Source: a virus. Taken from it: a stretch of DNA of 64,000 nt. The DNA lies in the IMG/VR virus record IMGVR_UViG_3300013099_000020; one strand, written 5' to 3'. A model generated the notes under the pieces. That model had not been told where the DNA came from. It did no database searches and saw only the letters and a list, made by a program, of their open reading frames with translations. A program made the position numbers and the translations under genes. Shown one piece after another: positions 16,581 through 61,568 of this stretch. Every line of letters starts with the position of its first letter. The stretch's first letter is position 1.

Positions 16581-16793
16581 ACGCCTCCGACAACGACTGC
16601 CAGTTTCGGATACGGAAGATCGACAATGGCTTCTTGGTCATCAGCGGGTCTCATTACTTCTGCCGCACGCCTGAAGAGGTTCACGAACGGGTGTCTGTAC
16701 TTCTCGATGAGTGGCAGGACCCCAAGGCTGCCAAGAAGGCTGCACGAAGGTCACGTCGTGACGAGCGACGTGACGAGAGGGATGAAGAAGCAT
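16578..16793 (+). CDS. hypothetical small protein with basic/acidic tail
   Basis: ATG at 16578 overlapping the previous stop; C-terminal part of the 16337..16795 ORF. Confidence 0.35.
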
Positions 16794-17667
16794 GACGATC
16801 TACGTGAACTTCGATATCGAGACGACTGGTTCGGTCCCGGGGCTGTACTCCATGGTCAGCTTCGGGGCTATTGCCCACCAACACAACCCCGAGTCCGACT
16901 TCGTTACCCTCGGCCAGTTCGAGATCAACATCAAGGAGATGGAGGACGCTGACTGGGACCCCAGTACTCGGGCGTGGTGGGAAAGCCCGGAACAGGCCAA
17001 GGCGTTCGAGCATACGTTTGCGGCACCTCAGGTTCATCCGGACATCGCCATGGAAGAGATCTGCGCATGGCTCTTCTCCCTTGCGAAGTACGGAGGGCCC
17101 ATCGTCTTCGTCGCCTACCCGGCAACGTTCGACATGAGCTTCCTGAACTATTACATGCAGCGCTTCGTCCCCAAGACGTGGAAGGAGCTGACGTTCAACA
17201 AGATGGTGGGGTGGAGCTGCATGGATATCCTCTCCATGGCCTCGATGCTCCTCAACGAGCCCTACCTGAGTTCGACCAAGAGGCATTGGCCGGAGGAGTG
17301 GGTCTCGGAGAACGTGCTGCCGCATACGGCGATGTCAGATGCTCGGTCTCAGGCTGAGTCCTTCGTCGCGATGATGCGTGCGAGGCGGGTACCTACGGTT
17401 GACTCCAAGGTCTGGGTGGTGGTTTACAATCACCGCCATGGGTTCGACATCTGGACTACGTCTACGGAAGAGAAGGCTCTCTATTCTGCAACCGAGGTGA
17501 TACACGAGTATATCGTTGACCTGCCGGAAGAGGTTCAGCCAGAGATCGAGGGGCTCATCCAAAAGGGAAAGCATCAGGAGGCGATCGATAAATACACTGA
17601 GGTGCTTCAGGAACGCAACCCGATCAATGGTGAGTCGTTCACCATCGAGGAAAAGACTGTGACATGA
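16792..17667 (+). CDS. DEDDh 3'-5' exonuclease (DnaQ/RNase T-like) with C-terminal extension
   Basis: Exo I motif VNFDIETTG; Exo III-like H-x4-D (LPHTAMSDA); ATGA overlap with the upstream gene. Confidence 0.7.
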   Translation: MTIYVNFDIETTGSVPGLYSMVSFGAIAHQHNPESDFVTLGQFEINIKEMEDADWDPSTRAWWESPEQAKAFEHTFAAPQVHPDIAMEEICAWLFSLAKYGGPIVFVAYPATFDMSFLNYYMQRFVPKTWKELTFNKMVGWSCMDILSMASMLLNEPYLSSTKRHWPEEWVSENVLPHTAMSDARSQAESFVAMMRARRVPTVDSKVWVVVYNHRHGFDIWTTSTEEKALYSATEVIHEYIVDLPEEVQPEIEGLIQKGKHQEAIDKYTEVLQERNPINGESFTIEEKTVT

Positions 17668-18095
17668 CCAAGAAGTACAAGCCGAAGATCTACGAGGTCT
17701 TCCTCGACATCGCCGACATTCTCGATGAGGAAGTGAAACACAGCTTCCGAAACACCCCTGAGGTTCGGAAGCGGTTGAAGGACACCAAGCACGTTATGGT
17801 GTTCCATGCGCCGGAGTCTCGAATCGATGTCTGCCTGAAGAAGATCTCTGAGGGTGAGCGTTCCAAGTGGAAGGTCGACATCGAGGTTGGGTGGCCAACG
17901 AGTACTTACCACCCGGTGTACGCCATGGAGTGCGCTCGTCAGCACTCCGAGGCAGCTTCCCTGTCTCTTCGGGCTCTTGTGATCGCTGCGGGCTGGGAGT
18001 ACACGAACAAGGAGGTGAGAGCCTCTTGGGCAGAGTACGAGAGCTACCTTCGGAGCCTCGAACATGAGGAGGATAGGGATGAGCAAGAAGCCTGA
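17664..18095 (+). CDS. hypothetical protein
   Basis: ORF; the opposite-strand ORF 17607..18188 has a junk-like R/S/P-rich composition. Confidence 0.5.
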   Translation: MTKKYKPKIYEVFLDIADILDEEVKHSFRNTPEVRKRLKDTKHVMVFHAPESRIDVCLKKISEGERSKWKVDIEVGWPTSTYHPVYAMECARQHSEAASLSLRALVIAAGWEYTNKEVRASWAEYESYLRSLEHEEDRDEQEA

Positions 18096-18777
18096 GCGGT
18101 TCCTTCTGGGGATCGATGAGGCGGGGACCGGCGCGTGGGCGGGTCCTTTTTGCGTAGCCGGCACTGTCTTCCCCCTCGACTTCGACAAAGCTCCCCTATC
18201 AGAGGCGGCGACGTCGCTGGTCTGGGAGGTTACGGCTCCGGAAGGATCGCTCCGACCCTACCGGGACTCGAAGAAGCTCTCCGCGAAGAAGCGCGCTGCG
18301 CTGAGGCCGAGGATCGAACTGCTGGCTGTTGCCCACGATGTGGTCTACGTCTCTCCAGCTACCATTGAGAAGCGTGAGCAGGGTCCGGCTTGGCAGGACG
18401 CCATCATCGAGGTCATTGAGACACTGCTGGATGAGGTTGGGAACAAGGGGGTCGGCCACAGTCGGGTCGACATCATGATCGATGGCAAGCTGAACCACCA
18501 CCTCACCAACAGGATTCACAACGAAGTAGAGCCGGACCTTCAGGTTGATCATCGACCCAAGGGTGATGAGGCATTTCTCGCTGTGTGCGCTGCCTCAATC
18601 TTGGCCAAGACAGGCAGGGACGACTACATGCATGACCTGCACGAGCGGCTTCCCGAGTACAAGTTCAACACGAACGTCGGCTATGGAACGGAGGAGCATG
18701 CTCATGCTCTCGTCTGCCATGGTCGAACAAAGTTTCACAGACCCCTTACGAAGAAGTGGGACCTAGCGGATCGATAG
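18079..18777 (+). CDS. rnhB: ribonuclease HII
   Basis: LGIDEAGTGAWAGP (GIDEAGRG motif), DSKKLS, AASILAK, GYGT..H; ATG at 18079 after GAGGAGGATAGGG. Confidence 0.85.
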   Translation: MSKKPERFLLGIDEAGTGAWAGPFCVAGTVFPLDFDKAPLSEAATSLVWEVTAPEGSLRPYRDSKKLSAKKRAALRPRIELLAVAHDVVYVSPATIEKREQGPAWQDAIIEVIETLLDEVGNKGVGHSRVDIMIDGKLNHHLTNRIHNEVEPDLQVDHRPKGDEAFLAVCAASILAKTGRDDYMHDLHERLPEYKFNTNVGYGTEEHAHALVCHGRTKFHRPLTKKWDLADR

Positions 18778-19982: not shown

Positions 19983-20020
19983 AGGGCGGCCTTCGGGTCG
20001 CCCTTTTCGTATTTTTGCAC
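19983..20020 (+). terminator. rho-independent terminator
   Basis: GGGCGGCC-TTCG-GGTCGCCC hairpin followed by TTTTCGTATTTTTG. Confidence 0.55.
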
Positions 20021-20028
20021 CAAGATCG

Positions 20029-20038
20029 CCTATTAGCA
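20029..20038 (+). promoter_or_regulatory. conserved upstream motif CCTATTAGCA
   Basis: 37 nt upstream of the 20075 start, immediately after a terminator. Confidence 0.45.
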
Positions 20039-20287: not shown

Positions 20288-20344
20288 CAACACACAGAGA
20301 ACTTCGAGTTCTCGGAACCCCTCAGGGTTCTTTTACCCTAACGC

Positions 20345-20354
20345 CCTATTAGCA
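20345..20354 (+). promoter_or_regulatory. conserved upstream motif CCTATTAGCA
   Basis: 17 nt upstream of the 20371 start; preceded by two hairpins (20300-20335). Confidence 0.45.
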
Positions 20355-21966: not shown

Positions 21967-21989
21967 CCCCCTTCTGGTAGGCTGCACCT

Positions 21990-26725: not shown

Positions 26726-27123
26726 GACATCCGGCCGACACCTTCGAGTTCAAGGATGGGACGAAGCTCCGACTGATGAACGAAAGCGTTCTGGTCAAGA
26801 TGGATCCCGAGGCTGAGGAAACCTCAGGGGGTATCCTCAAGCCTGACGGTGCGGTCGAACACATCTACATGACCGGCACCATCCTGGCCTTCGGGTGGGT
26901 CCTGGAGAAGAAGCTCGAAGGGACATCCAAGACCAAGTCGCTGGAGAAGCCCTACCCAGTCCCGAACATCGAGCCAGGGCTGAAGTGCTGCTTCATCCGC
27001 TACCGGCGGTGGCAAGACACCAACAAGCAGCTCCGGCATATGTTCGGGGATGACATCATCAGCCTGAAGCCGGAGGATATGATCTTCGTCTTTCCGGCTG
27101 GTGAAGAATACGAACTGGGGTAG
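26722..27123 (+). CDS. GroES/Cpn10-like co-chaperonin (T4 gp31-like)
   Basis: VLVKMDPEAEETSGGILKPDGA....GTILAFG...GDDIISLKPEDMIFVF matches the Cpn10 pattern (V.VK..E.E..T.GGI.LP......G.VLAVG...GD.V.F). Confidence 0.55.
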   Translation: MRHPADTFEFKDGTKLRLMNESVLVKMDPEAEETSGGILKPDGAVEHIYMTGTILAFGWVLEKKLEGTSKTKSLEKPYPVPNIEPGLKCCFIRYRRWQDTNKQLRHMFGDDIISLKPEDMIFVFPAGEEYELG

Positions 27124-27132
27124 CATGGGCAG

Positions 27133-27534: not shown

Positions 27535-27635
27535 GGGACCTAGTTCCCCCATGCGCCCTCGGCCCTTTTGGCTGGGGGCGCACTCATCTGGGTTGACGGT
27601 TCCGCTGAAGTAGGGGCTGGTGCTACTCTTGCGGC

Positions 27636-33174: not shown

Positions 33175-33331
33175 GTGATCGAGCGTGCTATTCTACTTCT
33201 TGTACTGTTGGCTTCGTGCGCAAGCTCCCCACCGCCTGGGCCTGTGTGCGTGGTCTCTGGTTGTGCTCCTGACCAGCGTTTCGATGCTGATCATTGCCGT
33301 TGCGTGCTGAGAGACGATGCGAGCCTTGAGT
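33175..33331 (+). CDS. small Cys-rich lipoprotein (~51 aa; ILLLVLLASC lipobox)
   Basis: GTG start right after the upstream stop; hydrophobic segment ending LASC; stop overlaps the kinase start (TGATG). Confidence 0.35.
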
Positions 33332-34439
33332 GATGGTGATCGACTACCAGAAGTTCTTCGATGCTGCATTCGATCTCCTCTGCGTGGTTGATGCCACTCA
33401 TTTCCTGTCAGTGAATCAGGCGTGGGTTACGGTGCTGGGGTACTCCAAGGAAGAGCTGCTAGGCAGTCCTTGGGAAGACTTCATTCACCCGGAGGACCGG
33501 CAGCGAAGCAGAGATCGGTACGGTCAAGTACCTTCCGAAGGGGCCTTCGTGAATCGGTACATCACCAAGGATGGTGATGTCGTCTGGTTGGAGTGGTCCC
33601 TGCTTCCCCATCAGGACAGTGACTGTGTGCATGCCGTGGCGAGGGATATCAGCAGCTGCAAGGTGGTGGAAGAGCAGCTCGGAAAGTCCGTGCTGAAGCT
33701 CCGTAGGAAGGCGGAGGAGCTGGAAAGATCGAACCGTGACCTGGAGCAGTTCGCCTACGTCGCATCCCACGACCTCCAGACTCCACTGCGCAAGGTCAAG
33801 AACTTCACCATACTCCTACGCCGAGAGTACGGGGACGTGCTGCCCAGCGAGGATGCCCAGAAGTACCTGCGCTTCATCATCAATGGGGCGGAGAAGTCCC
33901 AGGCTCTGATTGATGGACTACTGGCCTTCTCTCGCACTGGACGGCACCTGCGGATAGAGGAGACAGACTTGAACGTCCCCCTCCGAGAAGCACTCTCGAT
34001 CCTTAGCGAGTTCATCCAGGAGCGCGGAGTTTGTGTGACGGCAGACTCACTACCCATAGTACAGTGTGACTCGGTCCTTCTGGCGCGTGTGTTTCAGAAC
34101 TTGGTGGGCAATGCGGTCAAGTTCCGTCACCTCGAACGCCCACCAAGGGTTCATGTGGGTGTCGAAGTTGAGGGCACCGACTGGAAGTTCACAGTAGAAG
34201 ATAATGGAGTCGGTTTTGACCCAAGGCACGCAGAGCGGATTTTCGTAATCTTCCAACGTCTTCCGGGTATAAAGCAGGGGACAGGTCTCGGCCTGGCCCT
34301 CTGCAAGAAGATCATTGAGCAGCATGGTGGCCGCATATGGGCAGAGAGTACCCCCGGGGAAGGCTCTCGGTTCATCTTCACCATTCCGCAGGAATACAAG
34401 AACGGTCATGCATACACTGAACCCCCTGCGCCCCGCTGA
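33332..34439 (+). CDS. cytoplasmic PAS-domain sensor histidine kinase (PAS - HisKA - HATPase_c)
   Basis: PAS-like N-terminus; H-box FAYVASHDLQTPLR; N-box NLVGNAVKF; G1 DNGVGFD; G2 GTGLGLALCKKIIEQHGGRIWAES; no transmembrane segment. Confidence 0.8.
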
Positions 34440-34854
34440 GATCCTTCTCGTAGAAGACGATGAAGGTGATGCTCTTCTGACCGAGAAGGCCCTGGAGATG
34501 GGGGAGATCCCCTTCCACCTTCAGGTAGTGGAGACCGGGGAGGAAGCCCTCGAACTCATCTATGGGGAAACGAAGTTGCGCCCAGACCTCATCTTATTGG
34601 ACCTCAATCTCCCCGGTGTGCAGGGTGGGGAGGTGCTTGAGACCCTCAAGACTGATCTTGAACTGCGTAGGATACCAATCGTTATCCTGACGAGTTCCAG
34701 GTCGGAAAGTGACATTCTTGCTTCATATGAGAGGCACGCAAACACCTATATGGTAAAGCCAGGGGACCCTGACATTTTTGAAAGGGTTGCGCGTACCTTG
34801 GGGGACTACTGGTTCCAGGTCGCGTTGCTGCCTCGGGGGTACTTGTGTCCATAA
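34408..34854 (+). CDS. single-domain CheY-like response regulator
   Basis: ILLVEDDEGD ... LILLDLNLP ... ILTSS ... K: receiver-domain hallmarks with phospho-acceptor Asp in LLDLNLP; start overlaps the kinase 3' end. Confidence 0.75.
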   Translation: MHTLNPLRPAEILLVEDDEGDALLTEKALEMGEIPFHLQVVETGEEALELIYGETKLRPDLILLDLNLPGVQGGEVLETLKTDLELRRIPIVILTSSRSESDILASYERHANTYMVKPGDPDIFERVARTLGDYWFQVALLPRGYLCP

Positions 34855-35636
34855 TCGATGTGCTGCTGGTAGAGGATGATGAGGGCGAAGCCTTCGTCAT
34901 CGCGCGCCTACTGGGTGAGGCTGTCGATGTACGGTTCACGGTGGCGCATGTCACCACACTGAAGAGCTGCCTACAGTATCTGGAGCTGAGGAAACCCGAC
35001 ATCGTACTGTTGGATCTCTCACTCCCCGACTTCCATGGGTATGACACTGTCGTGGAGTACACCAAGCACGCAGAGACCCCCTTCCTTGTGCTCACGGGGA
35101 ATGATGACATGCACATGGCTGCACGCTCTATGGGTCTAGGAGCGCAGGACTATGTTTTGAAGAACGATCTCCAGGCGCGGAAGCTGGAGATGTCGATCTT
35201 GTTGGCTGTTCGTCGCCATAATGCACAGACCGTTTCTCGAAAGCTTGAGCACTCTTCACGCACGTTGGTGTTTGATGGGAATGAGACGCGGGCAACACTG
35301 TCCATGGTGCGCCCCCATATCGAGGAGCTGATTGCGGCTATCGAAGATCTTGAGGACCACCTACGACGTAACGCCCCAAACACCATGGATGATGTCGAAG
35401 CCCTCCTGAAAAAGCATCATGTACACCCCACCATCCGTGAGGTTCAGAGCATTCTGCGGCTTCAAAAGGAAGTGCGCCCAACGCGCTCTCGATCAATATC
35501 GGAGCAAGCCATTCAGATGATAGAGGGGGTTGTCACGAGAAGGCAGGCAAAAGACTCTGAGGCCCCTCAAGACTTCTCTACCGCAGAGGCTGACCTTCTA
35601 GATGTGATCAATCGCCGTGAGGGTGGCAATGGCTGA
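34845..35636 (+). CDS. response regulator: REC domain plus ~140-aa C-terminal domain of unknown function
   Basis: VLLVEDDEGE ... IVLLDLSLP ... LVLTGNDD; the C-terminal half has no recognisable output domain. Confidence 0.7.
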   Translation: MSIIDVLLVEDDEGEAFVIARLLGEAVDVRFTVAHVTTLKSCLQYLELRKPDIVLLDLSLPDFHGYDTVVEYTKHAETPFLVLTGNDDMHMAARSMGLGAQDYVLKNDLQARKLEMSILLAVRRHNAQTVSRKLEHSSRTLVFDGNETRATLSMVRPHIEELIAAIEDLEDHLRRNAPNTMDDVEALLKKHHVHPTIREVQSILRLQKEVRPTRSRSISEQAIQMIEGVVTRRQAKDSEAPQDFSTAEADLLDVINRREGGNG

Positions 35637-41830: not shown

Positions 41831-42499
41831 CTATGCATTTACCGTGTGGCGAAGCTGAGGCAGGGCTTCATCGATCATCGTGTAGAACTCCGGCAGAGTG
41901 CCTGTGTTGTCGAGCACCTTGTCGAAGATCGAGAGGCTGATGTTGGCCAGCTCAGCTTCACTGGCGTGGCTGAAGCGCTGCTCACCTCGAAGGAGCCTCG
42001 CAACCACCCCACCTGCATCCTTGATACCCACGACTTCGTTTAGGAAGCGGCAGTCGGGGATCACCCAGTCCTCTTCCCCTATGTCCACACGTCGTCGGAT
42101 GTGGCTGAGGCAGGCATCCACCCAGATGTTCGGGTAGAGGGTGCGCCCCCACTCTGTGCCAAGCGTCTGGAGCGCCAGGCGCGGGGTGACGAACTCCCTG
42201 TAGTGGACGTCGCAGGCCTCGCACCACCAGATGGCCCATTCAGGCATGGCGTCTTTGTGCCAGCGCCGGCATCCTTGTTGGCAGTGTGGGCAGGTCCCTG
42301 AGAACAGGTAGCGTGTGTCCTCCTCTTCCCTGAAGGAGCTGGGTCCGTAGAGCTGCTCATCGGAGAAGTCGAAAGCGATCCGTGCGGCCTCCTTCAGGGG
42401 GAAGGCGAAGCTGACCTTGTTGAACCCGTGGTGGGCTACGAGGTGATCGGCGAAGGTGTCCTTCCCCGAGCCAGCGAACCCACACACCCCTATGATCAT
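41831..42499 (-). CDS. deoxynucleoside-monophosphate kinase-like P-loop kinase (T4 gp1-like) with inserted zinc finger
   Basis: N-terminus MIIGVCGFAGSGKDTFADHL parallels T4 dNMP kinase MKLIFLSGVKRSGKDTTADF; insert CPHCQ...C...CEAC; the track start at 42631 adds a P/R-rich junk-like extension, so the ATG at 42499 is preferred. Confidence 0.6.
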   Translation of the reverse strand: MIIGVCGFAGSGKDTFADHLVAHHGFNKVSFAFPLKEAARIAFDFSDEQLYGPSSFREEEDTRYLFSGTCPHCQQGCRRWHKDAMPEWAIWWCEACDVHYREFVTPRLALQTLGTEWGRTLYPNIWVDACLSHIRRRVDIGEEDWVIPDCRFLNEVVGIKDAGGVVARLLRGEQRFSHASEAELANISLSIFDKVLDNTGTLPEFYTMIDEALPQLRHTVNA

Positions 42500-42792
42500 G
42501 CGCCCCCCTCTTCGTCTCGGGACGCCTGGATAGCTTGGGACGCCCGGATGTCGATGGATTGGGAATGGACTGCGCGGGTTCGGGCCTCTTCGCAGAGGCG
42601 TTCCAGAGCCCCTATCTCTTCCATAGACCACTCGTTACGGGCCTCCGGGTTGGCTTCGAGAGCCTCTGGGGGTACTACTTTGGTGATGGAGGCCTTCAGT
42701 TTGCGGTGAAGCCCTTCCCCTTCCCAGTAGGTGAGGAGCTGTACGTCTCCGATCCTAAGTAGAAGATCCTCGGTCTTGGTTTTTTTCGGCAT
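42496..42792 (-). CDS. hypothetical protein
   Basis: ORF; ATGA-coupled to the kinase gene; conserved motif 18 nt upstream. Confidence 0.45.
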   Translation of the reverse strand: MPKKTKTEDLLLRIGDVQLLTYWEGEGLHRKLKASITKVVPPEALEANPEARNEWSMEEIGALERLCEEARTRAVHSQSIDIRASQAIQASRDEEGGA

Positions 42793-42809: not shown

Positions 42810-42819
42810 TGCTGATAGG
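42810..42819 (-). promoter_or_regulatory. conserved upstream motif CCTATCAGCA (minus strand)
   Basis: 18 nt upstream of the minus-strand start at 42792. Confidence 0.5.
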
Positions 42820-47335: not shown

Positions 47336-47370
47336 GTCTACCTCTCCGAAGAGTAGGGTACACTCTCCCC

Positions 47371-48624: not shown

Positions 48625-49170
48625 CTAGCTCGTCTTCGGGATGGGGTCTATCTTCCTTCGCGCATTCCTAATCTTCCTCCGGTTTTTGGGTAGCATGTAC
48701 TCATCCTCCAGGTGGCAGAAGCATGGCCCGCGAAGATCATGCAGGAATCCGATCTGACCCCAGAGCATGAATGCCTCCGGGTCAAAGGTGAGGTCTCCAT
48801 CACCAGGACCATCGTCAAGGAAGGCCTTGGCGACAGTCTTGCTATAGACTGGCCGCGTCGCATCGGTGTGGGCGATCGTCACGTGTGGGGCCGAAGCCCA
48901 CTCTAGAAGCTCACGGTGCTTCGGGTCGACCGCTTCAACGATGGCGCACTGTGCGCCGCCCTCGTCGCGGATCCCGATGACCGAGAACTGGGCCCACTGA
49001 CCCATGAGGTCGGCGGGGATCTTGTCCGGGTTGCCTCGGAAGCTAAGGGTGATGTGATCCCCCTTAGTGTTCGGGTGCAGTTTCCCGAGGTGCCGTTTGG
49101 CTGTGCTGAGGAGCCTCCGTTTGGAATCATTTCCAAGGAAGATTCCTGTGTAGACTGACGCTGTGGTCAT
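48625..49170 (-). CDS. 2H phosphoesterase superfamily protein (LigT / cyclic phosphodiesterase-like)
   Basis: Two H-x-T/S-x motifs about 65 aa apart: GDHITLSF and APHVTIAHTD; ~180 aa as for LigT-like enzymes. Confidence 0.6.
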   Translation of the reverse strand: MTTASVYTGIFLGNDSKRRLLSTAKRHLGKLHPNTKGDHITLSFRGNPDKIPADLMGQWAQFSVIGIRDEGGAQCAIVEAVDPKHRELLEWASAPHVTIAHTDATRPVYSKTVAKAFLDDGPGDGDLTFDPEAFMLWGQIGFLHDLRGPCFCHLEDEYMLPKNRRKIRNARRKIDPIPKTS

Positions 49171-49212: not shown

Positions 49213-49222
49213 TGCTAATAGG
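49213..49222 (-). promoter_or_regulatory. conserved upstream motif CCTATTAGCA (minus strand)
   Basis: 43 nt upstream of the minus-strand start at 49170. Confidence 0.45.
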
Positions 49223-52842: not shown

Positions 52843-52877
52843 TTCCTTAGAAGTAAACGCTGAGGTACACTTCGGCC

Positions 52878-53918: not shown

Positions 53919-53919
53919 C

Positions 53920-53929
53920 GCTATCAGCC
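53920..53929 (+). promoter_or_regulatory. conserved upstream motif variant GCTATCAGCC
   Basis: 13 nt upstream of the 53942 start. Confidence 0.4.
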
Positions 53930-53941
53930 TTGTGAGGAGCC

Positions 53942-54268
53942 ATGATCAGAAAACTAGCAGAAGAACTCGCGACGGATGGTGCCGTTCCCGGTGGGAACGA
54001 CGCTCGACCATTGGACGAGCCAAGTGCTCCGGCAATCAAGTCGGACTTCACACCAGACCCTGATCACGGCTTCACCGCACACAGTGGTGAGGGCCACGCG
54101 CAAACTACGGCGGGAGTGCTGAGCCGATCTCTGACGAACTACGAACCTGCCGCTCAGGATTATGAGCGGACGATGTCACGGGTCCTTGGGGATCACGTGA
54201 AGAACATCTCAGGCTCGTCGGCTACGTCACAGCGATCGGTGAAGCGGTTCCAAGGTCGTAAGCGCTGA
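53942..54268 (+). CDS. hypothetical protein
   Basis: ORF with GTGAGGAGCC RBS. Confidence 0.4.
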   Translation: MIRKLAEELATDGAVPGGNDARPLDEPSAPAIKSDFTPDPDHGFTAHSGEGHAQTTAGVLSRSLTNYEPAAQDYERTMSRVLGDHVKNISGSSATSQRSVKRFQGRKR

Positions 54269-54287: not shown

Positions 54288-55097
54288 ATGGTGAAGAAGA
54301 GGCTCGGCAAGAGGGAGCTAGACGCATTCCTCCAGCAGGGGCGTAAGGCAAAGCTGCATGCTGCGCAGGCGAAGGCTCCTAAAGAGGTGGAGCTGTGGAA
54401 GGACTGGCACAGCGGAGGCCGGCGACAGAAGGACCTGGTCCCGCTCATGAAGAGCCTGGAGAATGTCGTACGCTCTCAGGCGCGACAGTACAGCTCTGGG
54501 TATGGGGGGTCGCTTGTACCAGGAGCCACGGAGCTTGAGCTTCGCAGGCACATGAAGAAGGCGATCGAGAGCTACGATCCCAACCGAGGGGTCAAGCTTT
54601 CGACGTGGGCGATCAGCCAGATGCGTGCCTTCACCGGGAAGGCAGCCAAGCGGAGGAACTTCGGGACCCAATCCAAGAAGGACTTCCAGGCAACGCAGGA
54701 GTTCAACAACGCGATCAACGAGCTGCACTCGCAAGGGAAGCTGGACCCGACGCATCATGAGATCGCCGAGCGAGTGGGCTGGCCTATTTCTCGTGTGAAG
54801 AGGATGCAGACGGGGACCATGCGGCGAGAGCTGTACACCGGGATCACTCCCGGACAGGACGACGATGTCGGAGGAGCACCGAGCCAGATGCGTAGCATCA
54901 TGAGCTTGATGTACTTCAACAACGACGAGGAGAAGAAGGTCTTCAGGGCTCTGAAGCTGCACTCTCCGGATCGAGACCTGGACAGCCGGGTCAACATGGC
55001 GCGTACTGCCAAGACTCTAGGCATACCCTTGTCTCGGTTGTACAAGATCCGAGACACTCTCAAGAAGAGAGTTCAACCCCTGGTCAGTAGGATCTGA
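54288..55097 (+). CDS. sigma-70 family sigma factor (regions 2 and 4 only)
   Basis: Region 2 signature ESYDPNRGVKLSTWAISQMRAF (cf. DP.RG.KFSTYA..WI); C-terminal HTH MARTAKTLGIPLSRLYKIRDTLKKR resembling region 4.2. Confidence 0.7.
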   Translation: MVKKRLGKRELDAFLQQGRKAKLHAAQAKAPKEVELWKDWHSGGRRQKDLVPLMKSLENVVRSQARQYSSGYGGSLVPGATELELRRHMKKAIESYDPNRGVKLSTWAISQMRAFTGKAAKRRNFGTQSKKDFQATQEFNNAINELHSQGKLDPTHHEIAERVGWPISRVKRMQTGTMRRELYTGITPGQDDDVGGAPSQMRSIMSLMYFNNDEEKKVFRALKLHSPDRDLDSRVNMARTAKTLGIPLSRLYKIRDTLKKRVQPLVSRI

Positions 55098-55324
55098 TGT
55101 CAAGCCCGCAACAGCGAGAGGACCGAGATGCCCGACTGGATCGTCTTCAGTCGGCGCTCGATGATTGGCATACAGCTGAGCGCAAGCGCTTGGAGGATGA
55201 AGCGACGTACCTGAAGAGCATTCTTCGAGGTCGTACGGGTTCCGAGAGGCTCGCCCGTGAGAACACTGCTGAGGCTGAGGTGCTGGTGATCGATGACATC
55301 ACCAGCTTCCTTGCCGGAACCTGA
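55097..55324 (+). CDS. hypothetical small charged protein immediately after the sigma gene (anti-sigma/regulatory?)
   Basis: ORF overlapping the sigma-gene stop (ATGA). Confidence 0.4.
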   Translation: MSSPQQREDRDARLDRLQSALDDWHTAERKRLEDEATYLKSILRGRTGSERLARENTAEAEVLVIDDITSFLAGT

Positions 55325-55774: not shown

Positions 55775-55791
55775 GTGGTACGGTAGGGGCG

Positions 55792-59568: not shown

Positions 59569-60699
59569 ATGCCCATCCACACCAAGACCTATACGATCTC
59601 GACCGCCGTTGGCGGTGGCGCCGTCGATGAGTCCCGCCTCGATTTGGAGATTCGCCAGAGCCCAGACATTCTACATGCGTTGAGCGGTATCTCCTCGGAC
59701 ATCGGGACGGACACGCTCTCGATCAGTTTCAGGGACATGCTCACGTCGCCCGAGGAAGTTGCACTGGGGCAGCTTGTCGCTGTTCACACCGGACTCCCCC
59801 TCGAAGAGCCGGTGAACAGCGACGGCGTGCCTCTTGTTGCGCTCGCTGGAATCGGCAGCGTCCAAGTGGTCGGGCGTACGGGCTCGGAGATGATTCGGGC
59901 CACGCATGACTTCTGTCATCCTTGCACTTGGTTCGGGGAGTCCGTGCGTACCTCCGAGGTGCTCACGAATCCTTCCGCAGATACCCTGACCTGGAAGAGC
60001 GCGAAGGCGTGCTGGATCGACCTGATGCACGGCAAGATCCACGACGAGGAGCGTATCTCGTCTACGATCTCTCACGGCTATCTGCCTGTAGTAAAGGTCA
60101 ATGGCGTGGCGCAGCTACGCCGCCCCTACCGCGCATCGGACTGGTCGCTCGGTGGGGACTACTACATCGACCATGAGGCTGGTGAGGTCGTCTTCCAGGC
60201 GGCTCCCGCTGCCGCTCCTGAGGCGGAGTACAGCTACGCGGTTGGCAGCGGGTGGGTCCTGCAACCAGATCCCGGTAAGGTCATCGAGATCGAAAACGCG
60301 GAGCTTCAGTGGATCGACGTGGACTACAATGCGGCGATCGTGCAAGACGTGGAATACTCGCCCGATGGCGGGACTACCTGGATCGTGGTTGACCGCAGTA
60401 TCTACAAGTCGTTCGCCCAGATCGTCGATGAGGCGCGGGGCTCATTCCCTGAGCAGGCTGCCGTGGTGGGGACCCCCACCTGGCGTGGTACCGCGGGCAC
60501 CATCCAGCACACGCCGCTGATCTATTCCGCCGTCAAGGCTCTCCGGTCGAGCCAGGGTATCCGCATGCGAATGTGGCTGGGCTACGTGTCTCATGCGGCA
60601 GACAATAGCGTCATCGTCACGGAGGTCGATCCCGCAGATGGTGGCTTCGGTGGCGAGCGAGCGACGGCTACTTTCTATGCCGTCAGCAAGGATGAGTGA
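59569..60699 (+). CDS. structural protein, unknown
   Basis: ORF. Confidence 0.5.
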   Translation: MPIHTKTYTISTAVGGGAVDESRLDLEIRQSPDILHALSGISSDIGTDTLSISFRDMLTSPEEVALGQLVAVHTGLPLEEPVNSDGVPLVALAGIGSVQVVGRTGSEMIRATHDFCHPCTWFGESVRTSEVLTNPSADTLTWKSAKACWIDLMHGKIHDEERISSTISHGYLPVVKVNGVAQLRRPYRASDWSLGGDYYIDHEAGEVVFQAAPAAAPEAEYSYAVGSGWVLQPDPGKVIEIENAELQWIDVDYNAAIVQDVEYSPDGGTTWIVVDRSIYKSFAQIVDEARGSFPEQAAVVGTPTWRGTAGTIQHTPLIYSAVKALRSSQGIRMRMWLGYVSHAADNSVIVTEVDPADGGFGGERATATFYAVSKDE

Positions 60700-61568
60700 C
60701 TATGCGTGGTGCAGCATTCAGCGGTGGTGGTTTCTATGGCAACGTGATTGTCGGGATGCTTCAGCGCATTTCAGAGGACGATGACTTCGAGCCTTGGGGC
60801 TGCATGACTGGCATCTCGACGGGGGCTTTGATCGAGAACGTCATCGCGCAGTACCCTAAGAGCCGGTTCAAGGATGCTATCCAAAAGCTCACAGGCATCT
60901 ATACCCCGCGGGTCACCGAGGACATCCATCGCAGATGGTTCATGGGGAAGATGGCTGCGCTATGGAAGCCTTCGCTACGGAACACCGCAGCACTCCGAGG
61001 GCTCATCGATGAGCTGAGCAACAACGAAGCCATCCGGACGGGGGACTATCGGACAGCGGTGGGGGTCGTGAACCTGGAGCAGGGGTACTACGAAGCGATC
61101 GGGCACGACTACATTCCCTTCAATAAAGCTGTCGAAGCGAGTGCATCCCTGCCTGCCTTCTTCGAGCCAGTGCGTGTGCCTGAGCATGGGTTGTGCGTTG
61201 ATGGGGGCGCTGCCGTGGGCTGCGACATCGGGACCCTAATCAAGATGGGTTGCACCGAGATCGATGCCTTCATCGCGATGCCAGAGAAGTTGGCCCCCAA
61301 GTTTATGCCAGATCCGGAAGCCCTCGACGTGGCCCTGCGCACCTTCGAGGTCATGGTTCACACGGCGTTGTGGCAGCAGGTCAAGATGACTCGAATCTAT
61401 AATCAGATCGCTCTTGGAGGGGATCAGCGCCGGAAGTACATCAAGCTGCGTGTCTTCGCTCCAGACCGTTTGGTGGGTGATGGGATGGAGTTCGTACCCT
61501 CACAAGCCATAGAGCTTCAGGAGATTGGACGCTCTGCTGCCTCCGAAGTCTTGCATAGCGTAGACTAG
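60696..61568 (+). CDS. patatin-like phospholipase
   Basis: Gly-rich oxyanion box AFSGGGFYG, nucleophile elbow GISTG (GxSxG), and DGG catalytic Asp (VDGGAAVG) in the canonical order and spacing. Confidence 0.65.
   Translation: MTMRGAAFSGGGFYGNVIVGMLQRISEDDDFEPWGCMTGISTGALIENVIAQYPKSRFKDAIQKLTGIYTPRVTEDIHRRWFMGKMAALWKPSLRNTAALRGLIDELSNNEAIRTGDYRTAVGVVNLEQGYYEAIGHDYIPFNKAVEASASLPAFFEPVRVPEHGLCVDGGAAVGCDIGTLIKMGCTEIDAFIAMPEKLAPKFMPDPEALDVALRTFEVMVHTALWQQVKMTRIYNQIALGGDQRRKYIKLRVFAPDRLVGDGMEFVPSQAIELQEIGRSAASEVLHSVD

Follow-up and report, generated by a model that had tools for sequence, protein, structure and literature searches.

We analyzed a 64,000-nucleotide stretch of viral DNA (IMG/VR virus record IMGVR_UViG_3300013099_000020; hereafter the window, with positions counted from its first letter), concentrating on a putative sigma factor gene at 54288–55097, on the small gene that follows it at 55097–55324, and on the promoter-like elements associated with them. 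The window forms part of a metagenomic contig of 75,377 bp (ENA ERZ27227324, k141_1519713), has a G+C content of 59.5%, and carries almost all of its genes on the plus strand. The sigma factor gene, also on the plus strand, begins with an ATG at 54288 that is preceded by a strong ribosome-binding site (GGAGGAGG), and it encodes a protein of 269 amino acids (aa) with an isoelectric point (pI) of 10.4. Immediately upstream lies a 108-aa gene (53942–54268, plus strand), which heads the sigma operon. The gene on the downstream side (plus strand) encodes an acidic helix-loop-helix protein of 75 aa, and its ATG shares one base with the TGA stop codon of the sigma gene. All three belong to a conserved module in which the gene order is 1263 aa, 67 aa, 398 aa, 1197 aa, 346 aa, 108 aa, sigma, and 75 aa.

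The sigma factor is predicted to be composed of a short N-terminal extension of ~45 aa, a sigma2 domain (residues ~47–123; 54426–54656), a sigma3 domain (residues ~130–175; 54675–54812), an acidic, region 3.2-like linker (TGITPGQDDDVGGAPSQMRS, residues ~176–199; 54813–54884), and a C-terminal helix-turn-helix domain assigned to sigma4 (residues ~200–268; 54885–55091), all encoded on the plus strand. Region 1.1 and the non-conserved region are both missing. The best Pfam match is to Sigma70_r3 at residues 138–174 (E 2e-5, 24.9 bits with a cut-off of 25.3), and Sigma70_r2 matches weakly at residues 91–113 (E 0.006, 16.8 bits with a cut-off of 24). No Sigma70_r4 match is found in the C-terminal domain, the Pfam r4 match at residues 155–180 overlapping the helix-turn-helix of sigma3; the Pfam model that matches in the C-terminal domain is HTH_23, at residues 234–263 (E 0.005). 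The protein also matches the sigma family phrog_351 in PHROGs (E 1e-5), and in NCBIfam the FliA/WhiG model TIGR02479 is ranked first (E 1e-6, 28.6 bits with a cut-off of 189.6), followed by other sigma models that all score far under their cut-offs. A word-seeded search of 5.8 billion proteins recovered ten homologues (clusters), and comparison of their profile with the PDB gave RpoS as the best match over regions 2.2–3.1 (E 7e-7), with weaker matches to RpoD, SigA, and FliA. The stretch assigned to regions 2.2–2.4 (KKAIESYDPNRGVKLSTWAISQMRA) aligns with region 2 of RpoS, RpoD, and FliA, and in these alignments ESYDPNRGVKLSTWAISQMRA lines up with a 21-residue stretch from Escherichia coli. Scans of the IMG/VR and JGI metagenomes with the sigma alignment returned nothing, or one short locus.

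In the AlphaFold (AF2) model of the sigma factor, which has a predicted local distance difference test (pLDDT) score of 71, sigma2 comprises helices at residues 47–66, 78–95, and 104–123, sigma3 comprises helices at residues 130–148, 156–163, and 167–175, and sigma4 comprises helices at residues 200–207, 213–221, 234–244, and 248–268. Linker residues 179–198 have low pLDDT, as expected of an extended linker. The linker is the best-conserved stretch in the alignment of close homologues, and by its position it would correspond to the “sigma finger.” Comparison of the model with the PDB by Foldseek listed 50 matches, all of them sigma factors aligned over ~230–330 columns; the template modeling (TM) scores are low (0.22–0.33), the orientation of the domains being free, and sigma4 is supported at the level of fold only. 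Among viral models (BFVD), phage sigma factors make up most of the best matches, the first being a FliA-like phage sigma. The region 2.3 residues that we take to correspond to the pockets for the A-11 and T-7 bases of the promoter in primary sigma factors, by the sigma70 numbering assumed here, are kept or conservatively replaced (Y96, D97, R100, K103, L104, S105, T106, and W107), and by the same numbering and alignment the WW dyad of primary sigma factors is presumably replaced by S-Q, as in FliA.

These comparisons indicate that ORF (open reading frame) 54288–55097 encodes a very divergent, three-domain (sigma2-sigma3-sigma4), group-3-like factor of the sigma-70 family that falls in no curated subfamily. 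Membership in the family rests on profile and fold evidence, since the curated cut-offs were all missed, and the predicted presence of sigma3 together with the absence of region 1.1 places the protein in group 3. Assignment to FliA/WhiG was rejected because, although this is the best-scoring subfamily, 28.6 bits fall far below the 189.6 required. Assignment to the extracytoplasmic function (ECF) sigma factors of group 4 was likewise rejected, given the presence of sigma3 and a score of 19.3 bits for TIGR02937 with a cut-off of 42.9. A minus-strand ORF of 214 aa (54318–54962) was taken for a GC-rich shadow of sigma, all of its matches being antisense to sigma homologues. The original prediction, made from the letters of the sequence, had proposed a phage-encoded sigma-70-family protein, and on this point Pfam, PHROGs, NCBIfam, the profile comparison with the PDB, and Foldseek all agree; the profile similarity to sigma regions that it had named as a test is present, as the RpoS match and a weak Sigma70_r2 match, with no r4 match in the C terminus. 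Its two-domain sigma2/sigma4 architecture has to be amended, because sigma3 is present and gives the best Pfam match.

The module is also found on three contigs of 134–196 kb (loci L012–L014 in our numbering) and on 17 IMG/VR contigs of 72–209 kb, most of them 150–209 kb, and the 75-kb contig could be a piece of a genome of similar size. By sequence comparison, the module belongs to large, uncultured phages of one clade, to which Salmonella phage Arash and Vibrio phage D69 are distant relatives. The position of the sigma gene is conserved in the close relatives, in L012–L014, in 13 of the 17 IMG/VR loci, and in Arash and D69. Within L012–L014 and the 17 IMG/VR contigs, the 398-aa proteins are 35–57% identical to that of the window, and the 1197-aa protein of L012–L014 is highly similar to its counterpart (~1,370 bits). 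The sigma factors of the same relatives are only ~33% identical to the window sigma, which thus evolves faster than its neighbors. Distant homologues occur in the same order in the two cultured phages: the 398-aa protein (gene start 47371) corresponds to Arash gp6 and D69 gp7, the 1197-aa protein (gene start 49249) to Arash gp8, annotated as “cell wall hydrolase, structural protein,” and D69 gp9, and the sigma factor to Arash gp10 and D69 gp11 (28% identity, phmmer E 1e-13 to 1e-16).

Mass spectrometry of Arash virions detected gp4 and gp6–gp17 except gp9 (PMC10585845), and this homology supports the view that the sigma gene sits in a module related to virion-associated genes. None of the neighbors of sigma matches a Pfam or PHROGs family annotated as a virion protein, and for most of the large neighboring ORFs these collections give no virion annotation; a 146-aa neighbor matched only phrog_644, whose function is unassigned, and tblastn found nothing for it. 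Because of these negative scans, the label of virion genes rests on homology to Arash gp6 and gp8, and the placement of sigma amid virion genes by the original prediction holds in that form, without direct annotation of a virion family. A nucleotide search of window positions 50–60 kb against a phage collection gave nothing, and scans of the GTDB species genomes for the 398-aa and 75-aa families also found nothing and hence gave no clue to the host by that route. A gene for a patatin-like phospholipase lies inside the virion-type module at 60696–61568.

Two classes of promoter-like element are associated with these genes. The 12-mer CGCCTATYAGCA is present in the window in three exact copies and two copies with one mismatch, with 0.36 expected, and the core of the first class, CTATYAGC (class A), has 12 exact sites with 1.9 expected, a count that no shuffle reached. 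An intergenic 8-mer enrichment count recovered the class-A core alone. All 12 sites face a start codon that lies downstream on their own strand, nearly all of them with a ribosome-binding site ~5–25 nt further on, giving the consensus gcCTATYAGCAnaGTGAaGGAGG, and the class has no conserved −35 element. Nine plus-strand sites are found in the left 20.4 kb, among genes for major-vault-protein-like, HD-domain, exonuclease, RNase HII, and methyltransferase-like proteins. These are positioned at 1437–1444 (CTATTAGC, ahead of the 871-aa ORF at 1448), 4127–4134 (upstream of gene 4157), 5983–5990 (before a 346-aa ORF listed from 5994, with an ATG after a ribosome-binding site at ~6012), 7176–7183, 10614–10621 (upstream of ORF 10642), 12491–12498 (upstream of gene 12518), 15592–15599 (upstream of gene 15619), 20030–20037, and 20346–20353. 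Two minus-strand sites are found inside the virion module, one at 42811–42818, heading a minus-strand block with a deoxynucleoside monophosphate (dNMP) kinase gene (41831–42631), and one at 49214–49221, upstream of a minus-strand 181-aa gene (48625–49170).

The remaining class-A site is positioned directly before the sigma operon. This plus-strand element (53919–53941) contains the core CTATCAGC at 53921–53928, followed by cttGTGAGGAG and the ATG, and it takes up all of the 23-nt gap in front of the 108-aa gene. It is kept in place in four related loci (L001:222, L003:808, L005:878, and L006:1563), and 11 of 17 more distant loci have it, in the form CCTATCAG/A, ahead of the sigma operon. In the distant loci, plus-strand class-A elements stand solely before the sigma operon, and minus-strand elements stand mostly before minus-strand genes. 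None of the 12 sites in the window precedes a plus-strand gene of the virion module outside the sigma operon. Class A thus marks an early-type gene class to which sigma belongs and from which the remaining plus-strand virion-module genes are absent, and it is no motif of late genes.

Four of the class-A sites (4127, 7176, 20030, and 20346) directly follow a stable hairpin and T run, which would be consistent with re-initiation and argues for a promoter; an RNA-processing site was considered and judged less likely for the same reason. Rfam found only tRNAs in the window and nothing at the motif. We regard class A as a genuine promoter-like element. The original prediction had read the recurrent motif as the sign of an autonomous late-transcription program; the phage does seem to possess promoter classes of its own, but a late program defined by this motif is not supported, the sites preceding early-type genes, minus-strand genes, and the sigma operon. 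The terminator-like hairpins themselves are located at 4064–4126, 7120–7175, 19985–20029, and 20300–20345, and also at L012:9940–9975 and L014:9950–9985. A recurring TTTTGCCC or TTTTACCC tail closes them and leads directly into the next class-A or class-B element; with so short a T run, they escape a simple terminator scan.

The second class (class B) has the form TAnnnT, is usually preceded by G, and lies 5–7 nt before the start codon of genes that have no ribosome-binding site. It was noticed by eye and tested statistically afterwards, and it is present at 8 of 72 gene starts with a background of 1.6% (P 1.7e-5). All eight starts lie within 22–64 kb (21990, 27133, 27636, 47371, 52878, 55792, 61573, and 62801), and five of them are in the virion module. 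The elements, all on the plus strand, are found at 21978–21983, 27121–27126, and 27624–27629 before the first three of these starts, and then as TACACT at 47359–47364, 6 nt before the ATG of the 398-aa gene, which has no ribosome-binding site, and where relatives have TAGGCT or TAGGAG instead. TACACT is found again at 52866–52871, 6 nt before the ATG of the 346-aa gene; this element and its upstream flank recur at L006:297 and L007:1436, 6 nt before the ATG of ORFs of 223 and 123 aa, and it is the nearest upstream promoter-like site from which transcription could read through into the sigma operon. Downstream of the operon, a class-B-like TACGGT (55779–55784) lies 7 nt before the ATG of a 227-aa gene, and TAGACT lies 6 nt before the GTG of a 163-aa gene (61561–61566) and 6 nt before the ATG of a 317-aa gene (62789–62794), the last being conserved at L001:6718 with a different spacer sequence.

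The class-B geometry is kept in relatives despite differences in both spacer and hexamer. A crude scan of the distant loci L029, L031, and L032 found none, and the pair of class-A and class-B motifs may be specific to one subclade. By established promoter geometry, the position of class B would fit the production of leaderless mRNAs. Canonical −35/−10 promoters are few, with one found and 4.8 (standard deviation 2.2) in shuffles at 1–20 kb, and one found and 4.9 in shuffles (standard deviation ~2.2) at 20–40 kb.

The 75-aa protein contains 16 Asp or Glu and 12 Lys or Arg residues, has a pI of 4.9, and has no Cys, which excludes a zinc motif. Its structural model (pLDDT 81) exhibits a long helix at residues 4–50, a loop, and a second helix at residues 54–72, and it has no Foldseek match in the PDB. 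A word-seeded search recovered 75 clusters of related proteins that are 49–83% identical and 71–80 aa long, many of them on contigs of 100–196 kb, and an exhaustive profile search extended the family to 253 clusters (at 50% identity), of which the listed members are almost all 55–105 aa long. Within the family motif L[RK]GRTGSERL the GRTGS is invariant, and ITSFLAG is conserved at the C terminus. This conservation indicates a real gene, and the trailing, charged small ORF that overlaps the sigma stop codon was in this respect correctly picked out at the start. Pfam, PHROGs, and NCBIfam gave no match to any anti-sigma family at E up to 1, and no similarity to FlgM, zinc-binding anti-sigma domains, RsbW/SpoIIAB, AsiA, Srd, or gp33, which suggests that the protein belongs to none of the known families.

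The 75-aa gene lies downstream of a sigma homologue in every locus that could be read there with the family hidden Markov model (HMM), and in L018 the domain follows sigma even at 21% sigma identity (hhalign probability 99.3%), so that the adjacency is robust and demands explanation. In the window subclade and in L018, L021, L022, L031, L032, and L034, the two genes overlap or lie <25 nt apart, and in the window phage the 75-aa gene is predicted to be translationally coupled to sigma. The overlap of stop and start codons is not conserved across the clade. In six relatives (L012–L014 and L023–L025), the sigma stop codon is followed by a GC-rich hairpin and T run before the 75-aa gene, and TAGACT, TATACT, or TAGGAT is positioned exactly 6 nt before the GTG of that gene; because the hairpin, the T run, and this class-B-type element intervene, the 75-aa gene would be transcribed apart from sigma in these phages. 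Extra ORFs separate the two genes in L020, L026, and L030. In two family members (P0284 and P0323), the 75-aa-type domain forms the N terminus of a VanY D-Ala-D-Ala carboxypeptidase protein (Pfam E 2.6e-17), and the fusion gene of P0284 (L018:1536–2240), from a freshwater phage lineage, lies directly after the sigma homologue. Judged by sequence identity, the 75-aa protein is better conserved than sigma, the two being 76% and 43% identical, respectively, in L009.

The proposal that the 75-aa product is a cognate regulator or anti-sigma factor is not supported: there is no family or fold match, six relatives give the gene a separate promoter-like element, and the domain is fused to VanY. Positive evidence for such a role does not extend beyond adjacency, and a late or virion-associated protein is more likely than an anti-sigma factor. 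Homology of the 75-aa protein with the genes at the same position in Arash (gp11), D69 (gp12), and L002 was considered and is unsupported by alignment and by the family HMM. The 108-aa gene is kept upstream of sigma in L001, L005, L006, L009, and L012–L014, a gene of 87–96 aa occupies its position in Arash and D69, and it has no family match in Pfam or PHROGs. It is probably co-transcribed with sigma, and its product is no less plausible than the 75-aa protein as a partner of sigma.

Neither the window nor the readable part of the rest of the contig yielded a phage RNA polymerase. A T7-like single-subunit polymerase that reads class A was considered and rejected, since the 871-aa ORF at 1448 is major-vault-protein-like and the other scanned ORFs of at least 344 aa have no polymerase match. 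The 871-aa protein (1448–4063), encoded behind a class-A site, contains a major-vault-protein shoulder domain (E 3e-22) and a vault repeat and is unusual for a phage. Arash and D69, by contrast, both encode a bacterial-type RNA polymerase, made up of a fused beta-beta'N protein and a separate beta'C protein. In Arash, gp206 is the fused beta-beta'N subunit (L015:12094–16671, 1525 aa; Pfam Rpb2_6 at E 3e-56, Rpb1_2, and Rpb1_1) and gp216 is beta'C (L015:21442–23262, 606 aa; Pfam Rpb1_5); D69 encodes a homologue of gp206 with 56% identity (143288–147856). The most spectra in the Arash virion proteome belong to gp206, and gp216 is among the five highest (PMC10585845). The beta-beta'N gene of Arash lies just downstream of the portal gene, the fusion is represented by at least 424 metagenomic clusters at E <1e-20, and a second Arash sigma factor, gp196, is missing from the Arash virion protein list. 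None of the 17 IMG/VR contigs that carry the module is among the 66 with an Arash-type polymerase, and none of the best 120 of the 424 Arash-type polymerase clusters lies on a contig that matches a contig of the 75-aa family in length. For the clade as a whole these negative results have limited reach and fall short of proof of absence.

The sigma gene shares a class-A element with the 108-aa gene and so stands outside the transcription class that surrounds it. The explanation that we tentatively prefer, to which we give somewhat less than an even chance, is that sigma is made from the class-A promoter and directs the host polymerase to TAnnnT promoters, a target assignment that we infer. In this mechanism sigma would be expressed alongside the class-A, early- or middle-type genes and would bind the host core RNA polymerase, and the resulting holoenzyme would go to the −10-only (G)TAnnnT promoters of class B to produce leaderless mRNAs of late genes. 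Class B is preferred as the target because known phage sigma factors typically activate the gene class that follows their own, as do T4 gp55 and SPO1 gp28 and gp33/34, because the presumed A-11 and T-7 pocket residues fit TAnnnT, and because scattered −10-only promoters recall the late promoters of T4. Use of the host core is proposed since a phage polymerase was found neither in the window, nor in the readable remainder of the contig, nor on the related IMG/VR contigs.

Several points weigh against this explanation. The pairing of factor with motif is purely something that we infer, a −35 element is absent from class A and class B alike, every Pfam and NCBIfam score of the sigma factor lies under its curated cut-off, and the recognition helix of sigma4 is poorly conserved across the clade. 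Class B, being TAGRRT-like and of leaderless type, resembles the ordinary housekeeping −10 element of a host that uses leaderless mRNAs, so a phage sigma may be unneeded for it. Class A, in its GCCTATYA portion, resembles what we take to be the −10 consensus of sigma28, GCCGATAA, a likeness that we treat as a lead only; together with FliA/WhiG as the best subfamily, it favors the reverse assignment. Should class A not be read by the host sigma, some other reader is required, and no candidate was found. Finally, the relatives of the Arash group encode their own beta/beta' polymerase, and use of the host core is thus uncertain for the wider lineage.

The reverse assignment is the main rival. Here class A would be a sigma28-like extended −10 promoter recognized by the phage sigma, and the host primary sigma would read TAnnnT; the phage sigma would then activate the genes of the left arm and of the minus strand and, in a positive loop, its own operon. 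The kinship to FliA/WhiG, the FliA-like phage sigma that heads the BFVD matches, and the lack of a WW dyad, as in FliA, are all in keeping with this arrangement, as are the length and near invariance of class A, which without a −35 element is typical of phage-specific recognition, its position upstream of the sigma operon, and the resemblance of class B to a generic housekeeping −10. The first sigma molecules could come from the virion or by read-through from the class-B site at 52866, given that the 346-aa gene is separated from the sigma operon by a 23-nt gap with no terminator. Use of extended −10 promoters by a host sigma has a precedent in Thermus phage P23-45, where host sigmaA transcribes the middle and late genes from such promoters (PMC7403470). 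The host holoenzyme would, however, transcribe the virion-module genes before the enzyme genes, which is an unusual order. Class A is also invariant across relatives in which the sigma factor is ~33% identical and evolves faster than its neighbors, and it has G rather than T at the −7 equivalent even though the T-7 pocket residues are kept. We consider the reverse assignment rather unlikely.

Two further proposals concern what accompanies sigma and how it arrives. The 75-aa protein may be a dedicated sigma partner, either an anti-sigma factor or a co-factor like gp33 of T4 or SPO1, made in fixed ratio to sigma through translational coupling; we hold this to be unlikely, even though it follows a sigma homologue in every readable locus, down to 21% sigma identity, and is coupled to it or <25 nt away in the window subclade and six other loci. 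The contrast between this acidic, helical small protein (pI 4.9) and its very basic sigma neighbor (pI 10.4) also favors the idea, and its very strong conservation (76% in L009, against 43% for sigma) would fit binding to a conserved surface. The same conservation can be held against an anti-sigma role, since anti-sigma factors usually evolve faster than their cognate sigma and this protein evolves more slowly. Its lack of similarity to known families or folds, the ORFs inserted in L020, L026, and L030, and the fusion to a VanY peptidoglycan peptidase in P0284 and P0323 also oppose this role, and the terminator and TAnnnT-N6-GTG arrangement of L012–L014 and L023–L025 implies transcription with the class-B genes. 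Alternatively, sigma, and perhaps the 75-aa protein, would be packaged in the virion and injected with the DNA, so that host or phage polymerase is reprogrammed to class A at once and class-A transcription would start without prior phage gene expression, with the 75-aa protein as a packaging or ejection adaptor that carries a cell-wall hydrolase in some lineages. We know of no virion-delivered sigma-70-family factor that has been described. The fixed place of sigma inside the virion module across very divergent phages, the small-domain-VanY fusion at the same position, and a class-A element that stands before the sigma operon and does not look like a host promoter would agree with packaging, and in Arash gp10 (sigma) and gp11 were detected in purified virions with 100% coverage, by 467 and 156 spectra, together with the beta/beta' polymerase (PMC10585845). 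That proteome numbers 116 proteins, however, including ribonucleotide reductase, primase, and ligase, and its authors consider carry-over possible (PMC10585845); carry-over from the lysate seems likely to us. Arash gp11 lacks detectable homology to the 75-aa family. The sigma operon differs in promoter class from the flanking virion-module genes, and a terminator closes it in six relatives, which speaks against its co-expression with virion proteins. We regard packaging as improbable. In the Arash/D69 branch, it is conceivable that a packaged sigma serves a packaged beta/beta' polymerase, and in the window phage that a packaged sigma acts on the host polymerase.

Elsewhere in the window, a two-component pair is formed by a PAS-HisKA-HATPase histidine kinase (33330–34439, Pfam E 7.5e-27) and, 400 nt downstream, a protein that carries a response-regulator receiver domain and has no recognized output domain (34845–35636, E 8.6e-17). 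Two groups of tRNA genes, at 832–1072 and 12171–12337, are on the minus strand, whereas almost all protein genes are on the plus strand; Leu-CAA, Tyr-GTA, and Leu-TAG form one cluster and Ile-AAT is in the other, where an extra tRNA at 12254–12337 is scored by Rfam and uncalled by ARAGORN. Enzyme genes include those for an HD-domain protein (5336–5971), an Rv2179c-like 3'-5' exonuclease (16792–17667), RNase HII (18064–18777), and, on the minus strand, the dNMP kinase (41831–42631).

Phage sigma factors are well known, and the sigma gene taken alone is ordinary. What appears to be new is that sigma and a small gene form a conserved pair at a fixed site in the virion-type module of these large uncultured phages, that their operon makes an enclave of one promoter class surrounded by the other, and that one promoter class is of leaderless type. 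The promoter map, compact, of two classes, and conserved across the clade, is directly testable. The 75-aa family, with its 253 clusters, has no known function, always follows sigma, and is joined to a peptidase in one lineage, and synteny with Arash and D69 links the module to cultured phages, which are open to experiment. If sigma proved to be virion cargo, or if the 75-aa protein proved to bind RNA polymerase, this would be a new phage route to the takeover of transcription.

Among known systems, the window sigma is close to the full-length sigma factors of large phages. Group 2 jumbo phages encode “complete” sigma factors (PMC7824862), and these, the SigF/FliA-like sigma factors of Bacillus phages, and Arash gp10 are stand-alone sigma2-sigma3-sigma4 proteins of ~230–270 aa, as is predicted here. 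The window sigma occurs in a large phage with no detected RNA polymerase; it is far more divergent than these and very basic (pI 10.4). With the Arash and D69 sigma factors it shares detectable homology and the same gene neighbors, whereas those two phages encode a fused beta-beta'N polymerase and none was found in the window phage. The likeness to the sigma28/FliA-FlgM system lies in FliA/WhiG being the best subfamily, in the absent WW dyad, and in the small adjacent gene. It is limited by the TIGR02479 score (28.6 against 189.6 bits), by a class-A element with no TAAA −35 element, and by the small protein itself: FlgM is intrinsically disordered, and the 75-aa protein, which has no FlgM match, is predicted to form a well-folded helical hairpin (pLDDT 81). 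ECF sigma/anti-sigma operons likewise contain a small gene whose start overlaps the sigma stop, but ECF sigma factors lack sigma3, and the 75-aa protein lacks both the zinc motif and the membrane segment.

The middle and late transcripts of Thermus phage P23-45 are reportedly leaderless. In that phage, too, a later gene class depends on −10-type promoters independent of a −35 element, although there the host sigmaA is remodeled by gp39 and no sigma is encoded (PMC7403470). The mechanism that we prefer, in which sigma made from class A would act on class B, resembles late transcription in bacteriophage T4 in its logic. T4 gp55 is a phage sigma of the early/middle period that acts on many scattered, −10-only late promoters (TATAAATA), and the same is proposed here. 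T4 gp55 is truncated and contains only sigma2, whereas the window sigma is predicted to keep sigma3 and sigma4. No homology to gp33 or gp45 was found in the window with Pfam or PHROGs; the small helical 75-aa protein is a possible counterpart of the gp33 co-activator. The putative class-B promoters differ from those of T4 in lying 5–7 nt from the start codon, a position that would give leaderless mRNAs.

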